Below, in pieces: positions 31,165 through 64,000 of a stretch of 64,000 nucleotides of DNA (positions are counted from its first letter, which is position 1; every line of letters starts with the position of its first letter). Location: positions 1 to 64,000 of the IMG/VR virus record IMGVR_UViG_3300033066_001283; one strand, written 5' to 3'. Under the pieces are notes generated by a model that was given only the letters and a program-made list of their open reading frames with translations, ran no database searches and was not told the origin of the DNA. This stretch comes from a virus. Its lineage: Duplodnaviria > Caudoviricetes. The translations under genes were made by a program, and so were the position numbers.

Positions 31165-31590
31165 TTAAAGTTCCTGTGTTTCACCAGTATCTAAAATATG
31201 TTCAATCTTATTATTAAGTTCTGATAATTCTATCAGTCTTTCTCTAATACGATCTGATAACCATAAATAGTCTACTGCCAATGTATCAAGCATTTCTACA
31301 GGTACTCGATCTAGTTCATCTCTATACCCCATCAATGTTTCTACTTCACCTGTAATAAACTGCTCAAGCACTTTCCAGTGCAACAAGGATTTATTCTCAA
31401 TAGTAGTATCTAGTATCTCTTTAACAAACTCTTCAGTTTTCTCTGATAGCTCTGAACAGATTGCTCTAGTACTAACAAGCTTTTCATCACGATTTTCTTT
31501 AGTCCATGTAGAAGGGTCTAAAGCTTCTGAGAATCTTTCACGGAAGTAATCTTGTGCCTTTTCTGTTAACAAATCATCTAATGATCTCAT
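31165..31590 (-). CDS. hypothetical acidic helical protein
   Basis: ORF in a co-directional array. Confidence 0.55.
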   Translation of the reverse strand: MRSLDDLLTEKAQDYFRERFSEALDPSTWTKENRDEKLVSTRAICSELSEKTEEFVKEILDTTIENKSLLHWKVLEQFITGEVETLMGYRDELDRVPVEMLDTLAVDYLWLSDRIRERLIELSELNNKIEHILDTGETQEL

Positions 31591-32195
31591 AATTCAACTC
31601 CATTAATTTTAGCAAGAAGATTAGCCTGCATTATAATTGTTCTCTGTTCATTAATACCTAGGCCTGCTAGATCAATGATCATAGTCTTATAGGGTTCATA
31701 AGCTACTATATCACCTTCTGCAACTTGAAATGGAATCTTATTACCACTCATACTTGAGTATCCTAAGCCTACCTTTTTGACTCGAGCAATATTTGGAGCA
31801 GACCTAACTGTCTCAGTAAGTATAATTCCACCCTTTGATTCTGTAGGAGGATCAATCTTTTCTATTTCAACATAACTACCCAAAGGCTGTAATTCCATTT
31901 TATCCATATCCATTTTTGCAAGTAAATCTAAGAACGATGCAGTATTAATAGTCTCTTCTTTAACAGTGTCCATATCAATAGCATAATTACCATGTGCCAT
32001 TACATAAACAGTGTCACCCTCTTTAACATCAGGTGGAATTAAGTTACCATCAATATCGTATGCACCTGGGCCAGCAGAGATAACAGTACCCCATCTAGGA
32101 GTCTTTTCTAGAATCTCAGTAATAAGAATTCCATCTTTCTCTGGGGGCTTTATCATCTCAAAAACTACGTAATTATTTAGTGCTTCAACTTTCAT
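31587..32195 (-). CDS. groES: co-chaperonin with two tandem GroES domains
   Basis: domain 1 ALNNYVV..GILI..GTVISAGPG..PPDVKEGDTV..DLLAK; domain 2 QPLGSYV..SKGGIIL..VKKVGLG..QVAEGDIV..NLLAK. Confidence 0.88.
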   Translation of the reverse strand: MKVEALNNYVVFEMIKPPEKDGILITEILEKTPRWGTVISAGPGAYDIDGNLIPPDVKEGDTVYVMAHGNYAIDMDTVKEETINTASFLDLLAKMDMDKMELQPLGSYVEIEKIDPPTESKGGIILTETVRSAPNIARVKKVGLGYSSMSGNKIPFQVAEGDIVAYEPYKTMIIDLAGLGINEQRTIIMQANLLAKINGVEL

Positions 32196-56969: not shown

Positions 56970-59570
56970 TTAATAATCGTATTGTGGTGGAGGCTTGGGT
57001 TTATCATCTGGTGCATCCACTATCAATGTTTCAGTCATTAGGAAGATTCCAGCGATAGATCCAGCATTCTCAAGTGCTGAGATTTCCACCATTGCAGGAT
57101 CAATAATTCCTGCTTTAAACATATCTACGTATACTTCGTTCTTAGCATCAAAGCCAGTTCCGTACTCTGATTTAGAAACAGTATCTACAACCACATCAGC
57201 GGCTACACCAGCATTGAAAGCAATAGTCTTCATTGGTACTGCTAATGCTCTTTTAACAATCTCAATTCCAGCCTTCTCATCATCACTAGAGTAAGGTAAA
57301 GCTGATAAGGCATCTCTAGCGGCTAAGAGAGTAACTCCACCACCAGGAACGACTCCACCTTCTAGAGCAACCTTAGTAGCATTAATTGAATCTTCATATC
57401 TATACTTCTTCTCAGTCATTTCAGCCTCAGTAAAAGCTCCAAGCTTAATTACTGCAACACCACTAGAGAGTTTAGCAATTCGCTCAACAACCTTCTCTTG
57501 ATCATACTTACTATCTAATACAGCTAGGGATTCTTTAAGAGAAGCAATATGAGCGTCAACTGTTTCCTTAGTTCCTGCGCCTTCAATAATAGTTGTATCA
57601 TCTTTAGTAACAATAACCTTCTTAGCTTGACCAAGTTTATCAGGAGTGACATTCTCCAACTTAGAGCCTAAATCTTCAGAGAAATAAGTACCATTGGTTA
57701 GAATACCAATATCCTTCATCATATTCTTTCTCTGCTCACCAAACCTAGGAGCTCTAATCGCACAAACATTTATTCGACCTTGGATATGATTAACAATTAG
57801 GGTAGAAAGTGCATCTCCTTCAATTTCATCAGCCATAATTAGAAGTGGTCGCTGTGAAGGTGCAATCTTTTCTAGAAGAGGAATAAGTTCTGCAGCTCTA
57901 CTAATCTTTCGCTCCCAAATAAGAATATAAGGATTCTCTAATACAGATTCCATCTTCTCCTGGTTAGAAACAAAGAACTGAGAGAGCCAACCTCGATCAA
58001 AATTAAAACCTTCAACCACATCTAATACAGTTTCAGTATTTTTAGTTACTTCGAAGGTAACAACACCATCAGCTCCAACCTTGATAAAGGCGTCACTAAC
58101 ATGCTTACCTACTTCTTCACTGTTGCCTGAAATAGTTGAAACAAACTTAACTTCATTCTCATCAGTAACACTAATTTTCTTAATCTTACCTTTGATAAAC
58201 TGCACGGTTGCAGAAATAGCATTATCAATACCCTTCTTCAACAGAACAGGGTTTCCACCATTAGATAAGTATCTATTTCCTTCATTAACTAATGCTTGGG
58301 CTAGAATAGTAGCTGTAGAAGTATTGTGAGTAAGAATATAATTATCTGTAAAGTACAGGTTATCAGGATTACTTACCTTAATACATTGCATTTCAGTATA
58401 CTGTCCAGTGGGTGTAATTGAATCTATACTTATACCATATTTATACCCCTTTAATTCAGAAATACAGTATATAGCAGTGTTAGAATATGACCCATTCTCT
58501 TTTCGTTCCTTCTTATACCAAGAGGTAGCTTTACCTAAGCTTCTAAAAAGTTCAAGTACATCTAAACATAATTGCTCACTAATAGTTGAGTAGCTATGTA
58601 AACCACGGGCATTATAATGCCCGTCAGTGTCCATCAACCCCTCAAAAAGACGTTTTCGAGACTCTAAATCTGAATACAGATATTCTTTAGGAATAAATTT
58701 GGTTCCACTTTTTGTTCCAAGTAAGCCTATCTCTCTAACAAGATCATGAGGACTTTTCCCGTCTGGTGTTTTACCTTGAATTTTAACTCTATAATAATTT
58801 TTATTCTCAACCAAAGTTGTCTTTAAATAAAGACCTTCAGGCAACACAATTTTGTCTATAATATAGGAATCGTTTCTACCTAAAGAAAGTTCAATTGATC
58901 CACTGCCACTAAGACTTCCATCACCAATGAGAGCTCCTACTAAATAAGGATCAAGAACAAAGCTTCTAGTATTAAAGTTTGGAACACTAGTTTCAACATA
59001 GTATTTATGTATTTTAAATCCCTTCAAATCAGTAAAAGATACTTTAAGATTCATAAGTTCTTTAGTGGGAAGAATCTTTAATTTCCCTCTACTTTTTGAT
59101 CTAACTGCCCACAAATGGTCCTCACAGCATTCAACCTCTCTTTTATCAGAGAATTTAACTTTATAAATCTCCTTGGAGCCTTTAGGAAAAATTCCTAAAA
59201 CTTTCTGAACTGTTCCATTTGTTCCACAAATTTCATCTCCAACCTGAAGATCTTCCATTTTTACAAATCCATTAGGAGTAAGAACTCTGCTATAAAGAGG
59301 CTGAGGCCCATCACCTGTAACATCATTTGTCTTTGACGCAACCTGTTTGCATAGCTGTGCACCTGAATCTTCTAGTGGGTCCTTAAGACTAATCTCACGA
59401 GCAATGGTAACTCCATCCTTAGTTACAATAGAATTCCACTGCTTCTTAATAACGACATTCCTACCACGAGGCCCAAGTGTAACCTTAACAGCATCAGCAA
59501 TCTTATTGATTCCTTTAACCATGGCTTCTCGAGCCTGCGCACCATAAATAATATCTTTTCCGTTACTCAT
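56970..59570 (-). CDS. groEL: chaperonin GroEL precursor with intein (predicted spliced length 538 aa)
   Basis: VTLGPRGRNV, TKDGVT.A, GDG|TSTAT, FDRGW.S, APRFGE.RK, ERIAKL..GVAVI, GVVPGGG, GIIDP. Confidence 0.97.
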   Translation of the reverse strand: MSNGKDIIYGAQAREAMVKGINKIADAVKVTLGPRGRNVVIKKQWNSIVTKDGVTIAREISLKDPLEDSGAQLCKQVASKTNDVTGDGPQPLYSRVLTPNGFVKMEDLQVGDEICGTNGTVQKVLGIFPKGSKEIYKVKFSDKREVECCEDHLWAVRSKSRGKLKILPTKELMNLKVSFTDLKGFKIHKYYVETSVPNFNTRSFVLDPYLVGALIGDGSLSGSGSIELSLGRNDSYIIDKIVLPEGLYLKTTLVENKNYYRVKIQGKTPDGKSPHDLVREIGLLGTKSGTKFIPKEYLYSDLESRKRLFEGLMDTDGHYNARGLHSYSTISEQLCLDVLELFRSLGKATSWYKKERKENGSYSNTAIYCISELKGYKYGISIDSITPTGQYTEMQCIKVSNPDNLYFTDNYILTHNTSTATILAQALVNEGNRYLSNGGNPVLLKKGIDNAISATVQFIKGKIKKISVTDENEVKFVSTISGNSEEVGKHVSDAFIKVGADGVVTFEVTKNTETVLDVVEGFNFDRGWLSQFFVSNQEKMESVLENPYILIWERKISRAAELIPLLEKIAPSQRPLLIMADEIEGDALSTLIVNHIQGRINVCAIRAPRFGEQRKNMMKDIGILTNGTYFSEDLGSKLENVTPDKLGQAKKVIVTKDDTTIIEGAGTKETVDAHIASLKESLAVLDSKYDQEKVVERIAKLSSGVAVIKLGAFTEAEMTEKKYRYEDSINATKVALEGGVVPGGGVTLLAARDALSALPYSSDDEKAGIEIVKRALAVPMKTIAFNAGVAADVVVDTVSKSEYGTGFDAKNEVYVDMFKAGIIDPAMVEISALENAGSIAGIFLMTETLIVDAPDDKPKPPPQYDY
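58323..59306 (-). mobile_element. class 3 intein (328 aa) with LAGLIDADG endonuclease inside GroEL
   Basis: starts PQPLYSRVLTPNG; block B DHLW, block F MQCIKV, block G ILTHN|T (W-C-T signature); GALIGDG and GLMDTDG motifs. Confidence 0.92.
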
Positions 59571-59595: not shown

Positions 59596-60078
59596 TTACA
59601 TTGTAGACTGGATATACACAGCAATAGCATCTGAGACTGCAAATTTCTTTTCTTTAGAGAATTTTAAGGTTTTCTCATTAAAATCAGGATACTTCTCAAT
59701 TACTATTTTCTGTAATTCATCCTTCTCAGCATTACGATCAGAAGTTAATCCCTTCTTTACTTCTTTAGCTGTAACGGTTCTAAAGGGAATATTGTAAGCT
59801 ACTGCTAATCCTATAACTAAACCTTTTACAAAAGCTAAGGCTTGATTAGCTCTTGAGCTTTTAGATCCTGCTGCGTGCTCAAAAACAATTTTAGTAGGAT
59901 TATATTTCAGGATTTGTTCTGCAAGTTCCTTACTGATAAACTCTAATCTGTCAGTATCAGAATCGGTAACTCTCTTGGAGGACTTGGAAGTTTTAATACA
60001 ACCACAAGCAATAATATTATTAGCTGAGAGAATAGCCCATCCAAAGGCTCTTAAACTAGGATCAAGTGTTAGTATCAT
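59596..60078 (-). CDS. ruvC: Holliday junction resolvase RuvC-like
   Basis: ILTLDPSL..FGWA, IVFE, EVKK......NAEK, SDAIAV. Confidence 0.88.
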   Translation of the reverse strand: MILTLDPSLRAFGWAILSANNIIACGCIKTSKSSKRVTDSDTDRLEFISKELAEQILKYNPTKIVFEHAAGSKSSRANQALAFVKGLVIGLAVAYNIPFRTVTAKEVKKGLTSDRNAEKDELQKIVIEKYPDFNEKTLKFSKEKKFAVSDAIAVYIQSTM

Positions 60079-61490: not shown

Positions 61491-62600
61491 TTATTGTACA
61501 GCTAGGGCTCTAAGAACAAGTCTCTCCCCTATTGCTAGTTTCACTTGACCTTGATCAGAATAGGGTGTTCCATCTATTCCTACTTGAACCACTGCTGATG
61601 CCACATTAGGATCATAGTTTGCTATAGCAGAAATCTGTGAAAGATATAGTGTTCCTATTCCTGTTCCATTTTCAACAACTAGATTATCAATCTTAGAAGA
61701 TATCTGTGCTCTGATGGATTGCCTAATAGACTCCTTATCAGTAACACTAGGAATAAATCTAAGATCAACTCTAATATCCATCTGTCTATAGATTGGGCCT
61801 TTAGCAGTTGCAATTATTCCTACTGGTACATTTTCATCTAACATTGATTGGGCTGCTGAAACTAGAGTAGAAATTTCTGATGAATTATAGGGGACAATTA
61901 CTACATCGAATGTTCCTGCTCCCCTTCTATTATTCAGTAGATAGACATCACGTACACCAGGAATGGAGCGAAGCATTGAAACAACATTAGTCTGATTAAG
62001 AACATTCCTACGCTGAAGCTCATTCAAGATTCTATCTCTATAGGAATCATCACTTTCTTCAAGCTGCCCATTTATAATTGGCAGTATATTGGTAACAGTA
62101 ACAGCAGCATTAGCTAAAGAACTGGCGTTCAAATCCCCTATTCCTACATTGTAAATTGAACCAATATTAGCAGCAGTTACATGAACATCAGTGAAAGCAC
62201 CAGCATTAATATTAGCACCTTCAGTAGTAAAGTAAGCAATAGAAGGATCCGCAGTCTTAAATACACGTGTTCCTACCGGCACTACTAATGAGGCGTTACC
62301 ATTGTTAATAAATCTAACAGATCTGGAACCCCCATTAGTAGTTGAGGATTGAGCACTTTTTCTAGGAACACCAAAGAGAAGTCCAAAATTGTCTAAATAG
62401 GGACCTGAAGCAGTTGTTAAATTAGATTGGGTTTCTATATCAGCAACATACCCCCACAGAGAATCCATTTCCGCAGCTATGATTTTAAGGACTACACCAA
62501 TAATAGAACTATCTAAATCAGCAGTAAGAGGTGTTTCATTCCTAATACGTGTACTAATCCTTTTCAGAATTTCATCTTGTGAGGGTCTCGCTAGCGCCAT
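61491..62600 (-). CDS. baseplate J/gp47-like protein
   Basis: TASGPYLD.FG..FGV.RK, VPVGTRV, A...G..YN, ESDDSYR.RI, IPGV.DV, GAGTFDV. Confidence 0.88.
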   Translation of the reverse strand: MALARPSQDEILKRISTRIRNETPLTADLDSSIIGVVLKIIAAEMDSLWGYVADIETQSNLTTASGPYLDNFGLLFGVPRKSAQSSTTNGGSRSVRFINNGNASLVVPVGTRVFKTADPSIAYFTTEGANINAGAFTDVHVTAANIGSIYNVGIGDLNASSLANAAVTVTNILPIINGQLEESDDSYRDRILNELQRRNVLNQTNVVSMLRSIPGVRDVYLLNNRRGAGTFDVVIVPYNSSEISTLVSAAQSMLDENVPVGIIATAKGPIYRQMDIRVDLRFIPSVTDKESIRQSIRAQISSKIDNLVVENGTGIGTLYLSQISAIANYDPNVASAVVQVGIDGTPYSDQGQVKLAIGERLVLRALAVQ

Positions 62601-62604
62601 ATTA

Positions 62605-62892
62605 TCAAGTAGAGGAAAGTGCTTGAATACTAAATTTTATTTTCATAGGTTCAGTATCTTCAATCTCATACGCCTTTAAGTAGAAGTAACTTAAGCCTTT
62701 AATTCCTTCATATTCGATAGCGTAGTTCTTAGAAGGACTTAACCTGCCTAAATCGGCAATTGCTTCTTCATCAACTAAGAACTCAAATTGCTCTTTATCT
62801 TGTGTTAAGCATTTAGCATTGAATACTAATTTCCTTTCCAGTAAATCTTCTAGTCCTGGAAGACCAGTTACTAATGAAACATATACTTTCAT
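62605..62892 (-). CDS. hypothetical protein (start MKVY, coupled to the upstream stop)
   Basis: TAATG overlap at 62892. Confidence 0.5.
   Translation of the reverse strand: MKVYVSLVTGLPGLEDLLERKLVFNAKCLTQDKEQFEFLVDEEAIADLGRLSPSKNYAIEYEGIKGLSYFYLKAYEIEDTEPMKIKFSIQALSST
62607..62614 (-). promoter_or_regulatory. CTCTAYTT motif upstream of baseplate J (candidate phage promoter)
   Basis: CTCTACTT 6 nt before ATG 62600. Confidence 0.4.
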
Positions 62893-63998
62893 TAGCCAAA
62901 TGCTCCCTCTCCACAACAAGATTTATACTTTCCACCTGAGTCACAAGGGCACGGATCATTTCTTCCCGCAGCGGCATAAGATTTATAGTATCTAGAATCC
63001 TTAATTACATCAGGAGGACCTACTTCCCCTCTAGCCACTTTCTCAGCCATAGCCTTCCAAGCTAGTGGCCAAAGATGGAAATTCTTCTCAAGAGAATACT
63101 GTTCAATGATTAAATCTCGACCCTTCTGCTTCATTGATTCTAACTTATCAGGATTATCAATCAAGAACTGAATAGCCTGTGCCCAAGTTCTAGCACAACC
63201 TTTTCCATTACCAACAGTTATTACCTTTCCTGGATGTTTTCTAGCAAACCTAGCATAGGGTCCAACATGGCTTGCAACCATAGCGGCTCCAGCGGCTGCA
63301 CCTTCTTCTATCTTAAGGCCTGAATTATGCTGTACAAATCCACCACCTAACCACTGTTCACCATCAGGAACAGAGATATCAAACACTTCATTCCTGCTTC
63401 TTTCAATTAAAACAATTGGATCAACAAAAGTAATAGGAACATATGCATTAGAATGGGGTCGAGAAATAATTGTTTTCATTCTCTCATTTTTTCTCTTACT
63501 CACAAAGCCAATTTCTCTATGAAAAATATCAGTATTTGCACGATTTAGATAAACTATACTTGCTTCATGAACACCATCATTTTGACATTTAACTGCTCTT
63601 CTATCAAGCTTAGCTACTATTCCAAATCCCAATAGAATTTCATGGACATCTTGCATTAACTTATGACTACAACTGGATATAGAACAACCACAGTCTTTAG
63701 ATACTGTACCATCTCCTTCAAACATTCCCTTTAAGAAAGCTGCAATTACACTCTTCTTTGATCTCCAGATAACATCAGGAATAGATAGTGTTTCTTTAGC
63801 TAGCTTTTTATTAGACTCAATACCCAATGATTTAAGAAATTCAGCCACAGGCTTAGATTGGACCGAAACATAAAACATATATCGATTGGTCGGTTGGTTT
63901 ATAGTTGGCTCTAATCCAACCATTCTAAGAAGATACACTATTCTATCTTTTACATCTTCATCTTGGCCAGAAACACAGATACTAATCTGTCCATTTTT
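62892..63998 (-). CDS. GT4-like glycosyltransferase C-terminus with intein and SEC-C motif; partial, frame open to the window end
   Basis: C-extein SGLKIEE.AAAG..MVASHVGPY...W...I..LI....; terminal GRNDPCPCDSGGKYKSCCG. Confidence 0.8.
   Translation of the reverse strand, partial: KNGQISICVSGQDEDVKDRIVYLLRMVGLEPTINQPTNRYMFYVSVQSKPVAEFLKSLGIESNKKLAKETLSIPDVIWRSKKSVIAAFLKGMFEGDGTVSKDCGCSISSCSHKLMQDVHEILLGFGIVAKLDRRAVKCQNDGVHEASIVYLNRANTDIFHREIGFVSKRKNERMKTIISRPHSNAYVPITFVDPIVLIERSRNEVFDISVPDGEQWLGGGFVQHNSGLKIEEGAAAGAAMVASHVGPYARFARKHPGKVITVGNGKGCARTWAQAIQFLIDNPDKLESMKQKGRDLIIEQYSLEKNFHLWPLAWKAMAEKVARGEVGPPDVIKDSRYYKSYAAAGRNDPCPCDSGGKYKSCCGEGAFG
63324..63998 (-). mobile_element. intein C-terminal part with LAGLIDADG endonuclease (N-terminus outside the window)
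   Basis: IPDVIW, FLKGMFEGDG, F.REIGF.S.RK, block F VFDISV, block G GFVQHN|S. Confidence 0.9.
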
Positions 63999-64000
63999 CC

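Follow-up and report, generated by a model that had tools for sequence, protein, structure and literature searches.

Architecture of the locus

The window analysed here is a 64,000-nucleotide stretch (positions 1 to 64,000) of the IMG/VR virus record IMGVR_UViG_3300033066_001283 (Duplodnaviria; Caudoviricetes), a record of 150,263 bp that is estimated to be about 80% complete. On its minus strand it encodes a GroEL chaperonin in the form of an 866-amino-acid (aa) precursor, whose ATP-binding loop is split by an insert with the features of an intein (Table 1). The precursor scores 641.9 bits against the TIGR02348 GroEL equivalog model, above the cut-off of 582.1 despite the insert, and the match falls into two stretches covering model positions 1 to about 86 and 86-525; solved GroELs in the PDB likewise match it in two stretches at E=1e-162. 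Alignment to these structures places the break between GDG and T(T/S)T, equivalent to G88↓T89 of Escherichia coli GroEL (the arrow marks the insertion point throughout), and hence inside the GDG↓T(T/S)T loop, the Asp87-containing loop of the equatorial domain that binds phosphate. The insert lies between Gly88 and Thr417, opens with PQPLYS and closes with ILTHN, after which the chaperonin resumes with TSTAT. Its 328 residues subtracted from 866 leave 538, and alleles that naturally lack the intein encode 537 and 538 aa. The alignments show conservation of the nucleotide-binding motifs of GroEL, namely GDG with Asp87, D52, the ED...AT motif (D727) and GGG.

An earlier reading made from the letters of the window alone (the sequence-only reading), which left the strand unstated, had described a GroEL with a 328-aa insertion in its ATP-binding motif that would revert to a normal 538 aa upon removal. 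The TIGR02348 match, the PDB alignments and the intein-free alleles bear out this anatomy, and the location in the ATP-binding motif stands; the letters that it gave for the motif, GDGTTT, do not, as the spliced motif of the window GroEL is predicted to read GDGTST.

Table 1. The groEL locus, its intein and other chaperonin- or intein-related features of the record (window coordinates unless stated otherwise; aa, amino acids; nt, nucleotides; ORF, open reading frame)
Feature	Position	Strand	Basis
GroEL precursor ORF, 866 aa, span includes stop codon	56970..59570	-	TIGR02348; PDB GroELs
N-extein, aa 1-88, ending in GDG (G86-D87-G88, 59307-59315)	59307..59570	-	GDG invariant in 115/115 carriers
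Class 3 intein with LAGLIDADG homing endonuclease (predicted), aa 89-416, 328 aa	58323..59306	-	Homologues; fold
C-extein, aa 417-866, with stop codon	56970..58322	-	Aligns with GroEL residues 87-522; 97% identical to intein-free P0140
Intein N-terminus PQPL, Pro1, no N-terminal nucleophile	59295..59306	-	Pro1 in 113/115 carriers, Cys1 in 2/115
Block B His64-Leu65-Trp66 (protein H152-L153-W154), Trp being the W of the WCT triplet	59109..59117	-	His and Trp invariant, 115/115
LAGLIDADG motif 1, LVGALIGDGSL, catalytic Asp129 of intein	58911..58943	-	Asp kept in 113/115 carriers
LAGLIDADG motif 2, LFEGLMDTDGH, catalytic Asp228 of intein	58617..58649	-	Asp kept in 113/115 carriers
Block F Cys308 (protein C396), predicted initiating nucleophile	58383..58385	-	Invariant, 115/115
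Block G Thr326-His327-Asn328, intein C-terminus	58323..58331	-	Invariant, 115/115
Thr+1 (protein T417), first C-extein residue, predicted acyl acceptor	58320..58322	-	Thr in 115/115 carriers
Hyper-divergent flanks (about 43 nt upstream and 12 nt downstream in the spliced gene; span includes intein)	58311..59349	-	Comparison with intein-free allele
RuvC-like resolvase	59596-60078		
Baseplate wedge subunit	61491-62600		
202-aa ORF with two tandem Cpn10 (GroES) domains in one frame	31587-32195	-	52.3 and 41.8 bits, both over cut-off
Second intein, class 1 (…NLAK↓CVVGST … GFVQHN↓SGLK…), two genes from groEL	62892-64000, on to about 65186 of the record (L094:886-3180)	-	Two LAGLIDADG_3 matches, 53.2 and 28.7 bits
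Third intein, class 1 (…RRVGK↓CVAGDT … TVLHN↓SYAL…), in Walker-A loop	Record about 112.3-114.5 kb (L096), outside the window		

Class 3 splicing signature and HINT fold

Class 3 inteins are defined by a non-nucleophilic residue 1 that co-varies with a Trp-Cys-Thr (WCT) triplet, formed by Trp at block B position 12, Cys at block F position 4 and Thr at block G position 5, together with Thr or Ser at position +1 (PMC2807308). Their prototype, the DnaB intein of mycobacteriophage Bethlehem (MP-Be DnaB), displays Pro1, His65, Trp67, Cys320, Thr339, Asn341 and Thr+1, and absolutely requires the block F Cys (PMC2807308). The GroEL insert reproduces all of these features: Pro89 of the precursor is residue 1, a boundary fixed by the intein-free alleles in which GDG is followed directly by STT, and the block B Trp, the block F Cys (Cys308, within EMQCIKV), the block G Thr and Asn, and Thr+1 are all present. 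By every sequence criterion the insert is a class 3 intein, with a splicing chemistry predicted from this signature. Like the prototype it is phage-borne and combines Pro1, His-x-Trp, the block F Cys, Thr-x-Asn and Thr+1, its key positions being 64/66/308/326/328 as against 65/67/320/339/341, in 328 as against 341 aa. The two differ in their hosts, a DnaB-type helicase in the prototype and a chaperonin interrupted at GDG↓T here. As Pro1 is also the state of the prototype, it is no oddity.

In phmmer searches of the PDB, gp41-1 and the class 3 intein MchDnaB-1 aligned to the N-terminal splicing region, with His-Leu-Trp falling over HQW of MchDnaB-1 and over HLW of the F65W variant of gp41-1. 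At the C-terminal end EMQCIKV...ILTHN lay over VRCVEV...PTHN of MchDnaB-1, and Cys308 also over the Cys of the gp41-1 D107C variant. An AlphaFold2 model of the intein, built on an alignment of 115 relatives, had a predicted local distance difference test score (pLDDT) of 96.8 and a predicted template-modelling score (pTM) of 0.92, and it displays the horseshoe-shaped beta fold of the HINT domain. For the whole model Foldseek recovered the yeast VMA1 intein PI-SceI at E=1e-16, followed by TliVMA/PhoVMA and PI-PfuI. The HINT part matched the class 3 inteins MchDnaB-1 (6rix/6riy) and Mycobacterium smegmatis DnaB-1 (6bs8) at a target-normalised template-modelling score (TMt) of about 0.8, and Foldseek also recovered the Hedgehog autoprocessing domain. 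The two mycobacterial inteins share with the GroEL intein the HINT fold, an aligned His-x-Trp and the block F Cys, and differ from it in being mini-inteins of about 130-145 aa, devoid of an endonuclease domain and residing in bacterial replicative helicases. PI-SceI and TliVMA/PhoVMA are the best whole two-domain structural matches (query-normalised score, TMq, of about 0.7), and they too combine HINT and LAGLIDADG endonuclease domains within a catalytic nucleotide-binding ATPase subunit. In contrast to the GroEL intein they are class 1 inteins with a Cys1 nucleophile, are only 12-17% identical to it, and, in the case of PI-SceI, measure 454 rather than 328 aa. The class 3 assignment of the sequence-only reading, founded on Pro1 and the residues of blocks B, F and G, has thus held up in the signature, the alignments to characterised class 3 inteins, the predicted fold and the empty-site alleles, and the three block residues are invariant in the 115 relatives.

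An alternative to the class 3 route would be a direct, class 2-like attack of Thr+1 on the N-terminal junction, with Cys308 playing only a structural part. The mechanism is read from signature residues only, the presence of Cys1 in 2 of the 115 relatives shows that the N-terminal residue can vary, and the work that defined the class was still investigating by which route WCT inteins with Ser1 or Cys1 splice (Tori et al. 2010, PMC2807308). Against this, the co-variation by which class 3 is defined is seen here in full, in Pro1, a complete and invariant WCT triplet and Thr+1; the prototype cannot splice without its block F Cys; and in solved class 3 inteins it is the catalytic Cys that Cys308 matches in the alignment. 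We therefore regard the direct attack as very improbable. The two GroEL inteins with Cys1 keep the full WCT triplet and in this recall the Ser1/Cys1 WCT inteins of the prototype paper.

The homing endonuclease domain

The middle domain carries both motifs of a single-chain, double-motif LAGLIDADG endonuclease along with both catalytic Asp residues, and its fold agrees: it matches I-DmoI, and the endonuclease folds of PI-SceI and PI-PfuI are also recovered by Foldseek. The PF14528 model scored 19.6 bits on the protein scan (cut-off 22.5) and 23.4 bits, above the cut-off, in a six-frame search. The presence/absence alleles, the divergence of the flanks and the decoupled intein and extein histories described below suggest, indirectly, that this domain may cleave intein-free groEL in a site-specific manner.

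Intein-free alleles and divergence at the junction

The window GroEL clusters with a 537-aa GroEL (P0140) that is present in two sequencing runs. Its exteins are 97% identical to those of the window on both sides, the insert is precisely missing, and on its contigs the gene order is as in the window (RuvC, GroEL, and ORFs of 273, 204 and 175 aa). A second intein-free allele (P0141) has 538 aa, and the exteins of the two are 96-98% identical to those of the window. At the DNA level the groEL genes of the window and P0140 differ at 7.9% of sites overall (about 92% identity), and the differences cluster at the junction, with 20 in 55 nt as against 107 in 1562 nt elsewhere in the gene (Fisher p=9e-10). 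The junction is 34% divergent, the most divergent spot in groEL, and ranks 9th among 1,326 windows over the shared 6.8 kb (mean 9.7%). Both empty alleles read KQAASTTNDVCGDG-STTGT at the site, whereas the occupied allele of the window reads KQVASKTNDVTGDG↓TSTAT and is near the general GroEL consensus and the other carriers. Scored with a matrix derived from 55 occupied sites over a core of +/-12 nt, the empty site obtains 10.9 bits, as against 28.5 +/- 4.2 (minimum 15.2) for occupied sites and 24.3 for the window; part of this gap simply reflects the need for Thr at +1.

The existence of near-identical intein-free alleles and the piling up of differences at the insertion point argue that the intein is mobile. 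The divergence itself fits co-conversion of flanking extein sequence when the intein arrived in the allele of the window, and it also fits a cleavage-resistant site in the empty alleles. A top match to the intein-free allele, a 760-aa GroEL (P0142), was considered as a further intein-bearing form and rejected, for it contains an internal duplication instead. This protein, encoded on a 291,908-bp ENA contig, has a duplication of about 220 aa in the apical/intermediate region, which might be real or an assembly artefact.

Distribution among phages and cells

The sequence-only reading had proposed a search for GroELs with an intein at this site, and such a search proved productive. The intein part retrieved 1,229 matches from a large protein collection, and the best 120 of these were examined: nearly all are proteins of about 800-935 aa with a Cpn60 domain, and their inteins are 51-66% identical to the query. 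This intein occupies the identical position in at least 115 metagenomic GroELs, the junctions being GDG↓PQPL...THN↓T in an initial 22 of 22 and then in all 115 aligned carriers, apart from the Cys1 variants. In IMG/VR 236 stretches with this GroEL intein at this site were confirmed, on viral contigs of up to 390 kb. Among 185,579 prokaryote species genomes (one genome per species), only four carrier loci were found, all on short contigs (2.7-7.9 kb) of metagenome-assembled genomes (MAGs). The neighbourhoods of two of them, L004 and L006, were inspected, and only that of L004 was informative. The L004 gene was ruled out as a cellular groEL, as it lies between terminase and portal genes and the contig is therefore that of a phage. 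This contig (JAGYLR010000027.1, labelled "Bacterium isolate M50B98") has the order terminase small subunit, terminase-large pieces, GroEL with intein, portal, and pieces of its terminase large subunit are encoded by two or more distinct ORFs (140 and 326 aa). In the 185,579 species genomes the intein is thus absent from bona fide cellular groEL, with the status of the MAG contigs judged on L004; and in the deposited phages of INPHARED the GroEL intein was not found, the best intein match there being 34% identical. The intein is therefore common in uncultivated phages and essentially absent from cells.

This distribution bears on whether the endonuclease might also serve as a weapon against the host, cutting its groEL at the GDGTTT-coding site while the occupied gene of the phage stays immune. 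In favour of this, the motif is universal at the protein level, the active site of the endonuclease has been conserved, and the phage has its own GroEL and a double GroES-like gene. On the other hand, no bona fide cellular groEL with an intein occurs among the species genomes, synonymous substitutions alter the target at the DNA level, and the site in a phage allele as close as 92% identity already scores well below the lowest-scoring occupied site. Such a role accordingly seems to have very little probability.

Decayed copies are few: among the 59 IMG/VR loci in which one script located both junctions there are three, and a looser pattern recovered 67 intact intein copies from the IMG/VR loci. 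When mini-intein or degenerate versions were looked for among these loci, no mini-inteins and only the three decayed copies were found. One of the three (L012) has a single in-frame stop, which could also be a recoded stop codon, and the other two (L069 and L077) have a common frameshift in an intein span of 1003 nt. That a few related copies have decayed raises the question whether the window insert is itself dead or domesticated, failing to splice and leaving either a GroEL pseudogene or a chaperonin that works with a permanent inserted domain. We deem this scarcely credible, given that the frame in the window is uninterrupted with all splicing and nuclease catalytic residues intact, that the exteins match the intein-free allele at 97% and attain a full GroEL equivalog score, and that an unspliced insert would split the loop with Asp87.

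Decoupled intein and extein histories

Comparison of 6,555 pairs of carriers, picked by their similarity to the window intein, gave a mean pairwise identity of 54% for the inteins and 29% for the exteins. In 99.2% of the pairs the inteins resemble each other more than the exteins do, and intein identity correlates only weakly with that of the exteins (Spearman rho 0.21), remaining at about 54% whether the exteins are 15% or 50% identical. Several pairs point to recent transfer, with intein and extein identities of 97% and 60% (P0105/P0113), 98% and 73% (P0050/P0052), and 76% and 40% (P0050/P0092). Mobility of the intein between phage groEL genes is hence well supported by sequence comparison, homing being its probable route. 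The suggestion of the sequence-only reading that the LAGLIDADG nuclease might attack other groEL genes accordingly fares differently in its two parts: homing into the groEL of other phages is well supported by the empty alleles and the decoupled histories, whereas cutting or invasion of host groEL finds no support, with only the four short MAG contigs among all the species genomes, a distribution that would still be compatible with cleavage of host groEL unaccompanied by homing.

Relatives and a probable origin in Walker-A loops

The GroEL intein is only about 30-34% identical to phage helicase and terminase inteins. In tblastn searches full-length relatives at this level of identity were found in 646 deposited phage genomes, 293 of them mycobacteriophages, in genes of helicase, primase and terminase type. 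Outside GroEL, the sequences most closely related to it are class 3 inteins that interrupt the Walker-A loop of DnaB-like helicases and of phage ATPases of helicase or terminase type, and examples occur in Clostridium phage phi8074-B1, Vibrio phage 1.161.O, Eggerthella phage LE2-3 and Bacteroides phage BS-TP3. They are 31-34% identical to the GroEL intein over the full length and share with it a near-identical N-terminus, a LAGLIDADG insert, a CxxHLW block B, a (Q/M)CI block F and a VTHN↓T end, so that GxGK↓AQPLYSKVLTP...VTHN↓T in these relatives corresponds to G-D-G↓PQPLYS(K/R)VLTP...THN↓T in GroEL. Both insertion sites are glycine-rich phosphate-binding loops followed by Thr. The two groups differ in that the Walker-A inteins have Ala1 (or Ser1/Cys1) after Lys and reside in P-loop nucleoside triphosphatases, while the GroEL inteins have Pro1 after Gly, reside in a non-P-loop ATPase and form a group of their own.

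In a quick maximum-likelihood tree a single branch with a Shimodaira-Hasegawa-like approximate likelihood ratio test (SH-aLRT) support of 98 parts 46 GroEL inteins from 7 P-loop inteins, and under a midpoint root the former nest inside the latter. It is most likely, as judged from these sequences, that the GroEL lineage arose once from class 3 inteins of the Walker-A GK↓T loops of phage ATPases; the direction of the jump, from P-loop site to GroEL, is tentative. The tree fits a single jump of this kind, akin to the "extein switching" from terminase to Cas4 via nucleotide-binding sites that has been proposed recently (bioRxiv 10.1101/2025.01.02.630785).

A model for splicing and homing

Taken together, these observations make it highly probable that the insert is a mobile class 3 intein with a double-motif LAGLIDADG homing endonuclease, residing in the GDG↓T(T/S)T loop of a phage GroEL. 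The GDGTTT loop and its Asp87 have an established role in GroEL. The 866-aa precursor should be inactive as a chaperonin upon translation, because the intein splits the loop that holds this catalytic residue. If the mechanism of MP-Be DnaB (PMC2807308) is taken over, Cys308 would attack the Gly88-Pro89 peptide bond to give a branched thioester, the N-extein would be passed to the hydroxyl of Thr+1, cyclisation of Asn328 would release the 328-aa intein, and an O-to-N acyl shift would yield the 538-aa GroEL with GDGTST. The freed intein, or the precursor, would then act as a site-specific endonuclease that cuts groEL alleles without the intein in co-infecting phages; with the intein-bearing allele as repair template, the intein would be copied in along with a little of the extein on its flanks.

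Several points weigh against this interpretation. The splicing chemistry, the branched intermediate at block F, the endonuclease activity and the homing route are all deduced rather than observed. The curated Pfam and NCBIfam intein models (Hom_end_hint, LAGLIDADG_3, intein_Nterm) remain below their cut-offs on the protein scan, so that the identification rests on homologues, PDB alignments and fold. The divergence at the junction may reflect either co-conversion or a resistant site, and the selection of carriers by their resemblance to the window intein inflates intein identity and favours monophyly. A foreign GC signature was sought in the intein and none was found, its 33.4% comparing with 34.8% for the window, and the exteins being GC-richer at 38-42%. 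The tree, finally, was searched quickly, is midpoint-rooted and contains no more than seven P-loop inteins.

The residues of the intein also allow for a conditional element, whose splicing would be tuned by temperature, redox or metal through Cys308, Cys27, Cys60 and Cys61; this would be compatible with a selfish role. An alignment of 116 sequences shows no variation at Cys27, Cys60 and Cys308, and at least 90% conservation of Cys61. Several mutants of the class 3 prototype splice in a temperature-dependent manner (PMC2807308), and according to two reports oxidative stress and zinc reversibly inhibit class 3 DnaB inteins of mycobacteria (PMC6195587, PMC7360933). The insertion in the ATP-binding loop, with a precursor that should be inactive, is likewise in keeping with such control. 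Near-identical phages with intein-free alleles indicate, however, that the phage does not need the intein, and movement between unrelated GroELs is what is expected of a selfish element. Conditional splicing is plausible by analogy, and in the present case we consider it unlikely; the gating by temperature or redox that the sequence-only reading put forward is accordingly speculative. A still broader scenario, in which splicing is a post-translational switch that times the phage chaperonin, the endonuclease attacks the groEL of competing phages or the host, and the low-scoring empty site is an immunity allele evolved in an arms race, is speculative and distinctly unlikely.

Genomic context and further inteins

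The neighbours of groEL are phage genes, including those for a RuvC-like resolvase and a baseplate wedge subunit. Besides GroEL the phage has a double GroES-like co-chaperonin, the layout of which recalls the tandem Cpn10 co-chaperonin of chloroplasts. The nearest named cellular relatives of the P0140 and P0001 exteins are all GroELs of Armatimonadota (Fimbriimonadales/Fimbriimonadaceae), at 55-58% identity, which might be taken as a weak hint to the source of the gene or to the host.

The phage genome is intein-rich. The 764-aa host protein of the second intein resembles by eye a glycosyltransferase with a Cys-rich C-terminal tail, and that of the third, again by eye, a terminase-large-subunit-type protein. 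Two weaker LAGLIDADG_3 matches lie in a 3,180-aa open frame at about 85.2 and 88.5 kb of the record.

Chaperonins as intein hosts

A search that covered mostly the open literature, and that amounts to absence of evidence only, turned up no report of GroEL or any chaperonin as an intein host. A chaperonin host is missing from an intein census (PMC4760082), from a mycobacteriophage survey (PMC5050341) and from a 2025 actinobacteriophage survey, the last of which lists 19 intein host genes with class 3 inteins in only 4. Where papers mention "extein" alongside GroEL or chaperonin, their subject is protein engineering or the action of chaperones on inteins. Two papers on Staphylococcus jumbo phages that mention both an intein and GroEL were set aside, as the intein is in gyrA. 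Phage AR9 and the Staphylococcus jumbo phages (bioRxiv 10.1101/2020.12.14.422802) resemble the present case as large phages with a group I chaperonin of their own, and differ from it in that no intein is reported in their GroEL, the intein being in gyrA instead. What we describe is therefore an ordinary, standard class 3 LAGLIDADG intein in a host protein and at a site that are unreported in the literature searched. The sequence-only view of the chaperonin as an unusual host is right for that literature, where GroEL goes unnamed, and wrong for the data, in which hundreds of GroELs of uncultivated phages carry the intein; similarly, its caveat that the site might turn out to be common and already catalogued applies as to commonness in metagenomic and viral data, no cataloguing paper having been found.

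Given this wide occurrence, the window copy is one example among many, and what it adds is the matched empty-site alleles: an intein-bearing and an intein-free allele at about 92% DNA identity would be a ready system for the study of homing, co-conversion and target-site immunity. As to annotation, GroELs of about 850-930 aa on viral contigs are to be regarded as intein-containing rather than aberrant; at curated cut-offs this lineage escapes the present intein models of Pfam and NCBIfam. A compact intein with Pro1, Thr+1 and a THN end could also interest protein engineers. The finding adds a chaperonin to the hosts of inteins, among which surveys describe proteins of replication, recombination, repair, nucleotide metabolism and packaging as dominant, and it fits the rule that inteins target the nucleotide-binding loops of highly conserved proteins. 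Further, the link to the Walker-A GK↓T inteins offers a concrete candidate for extein switching between two kinds of phosphate-binding loop.

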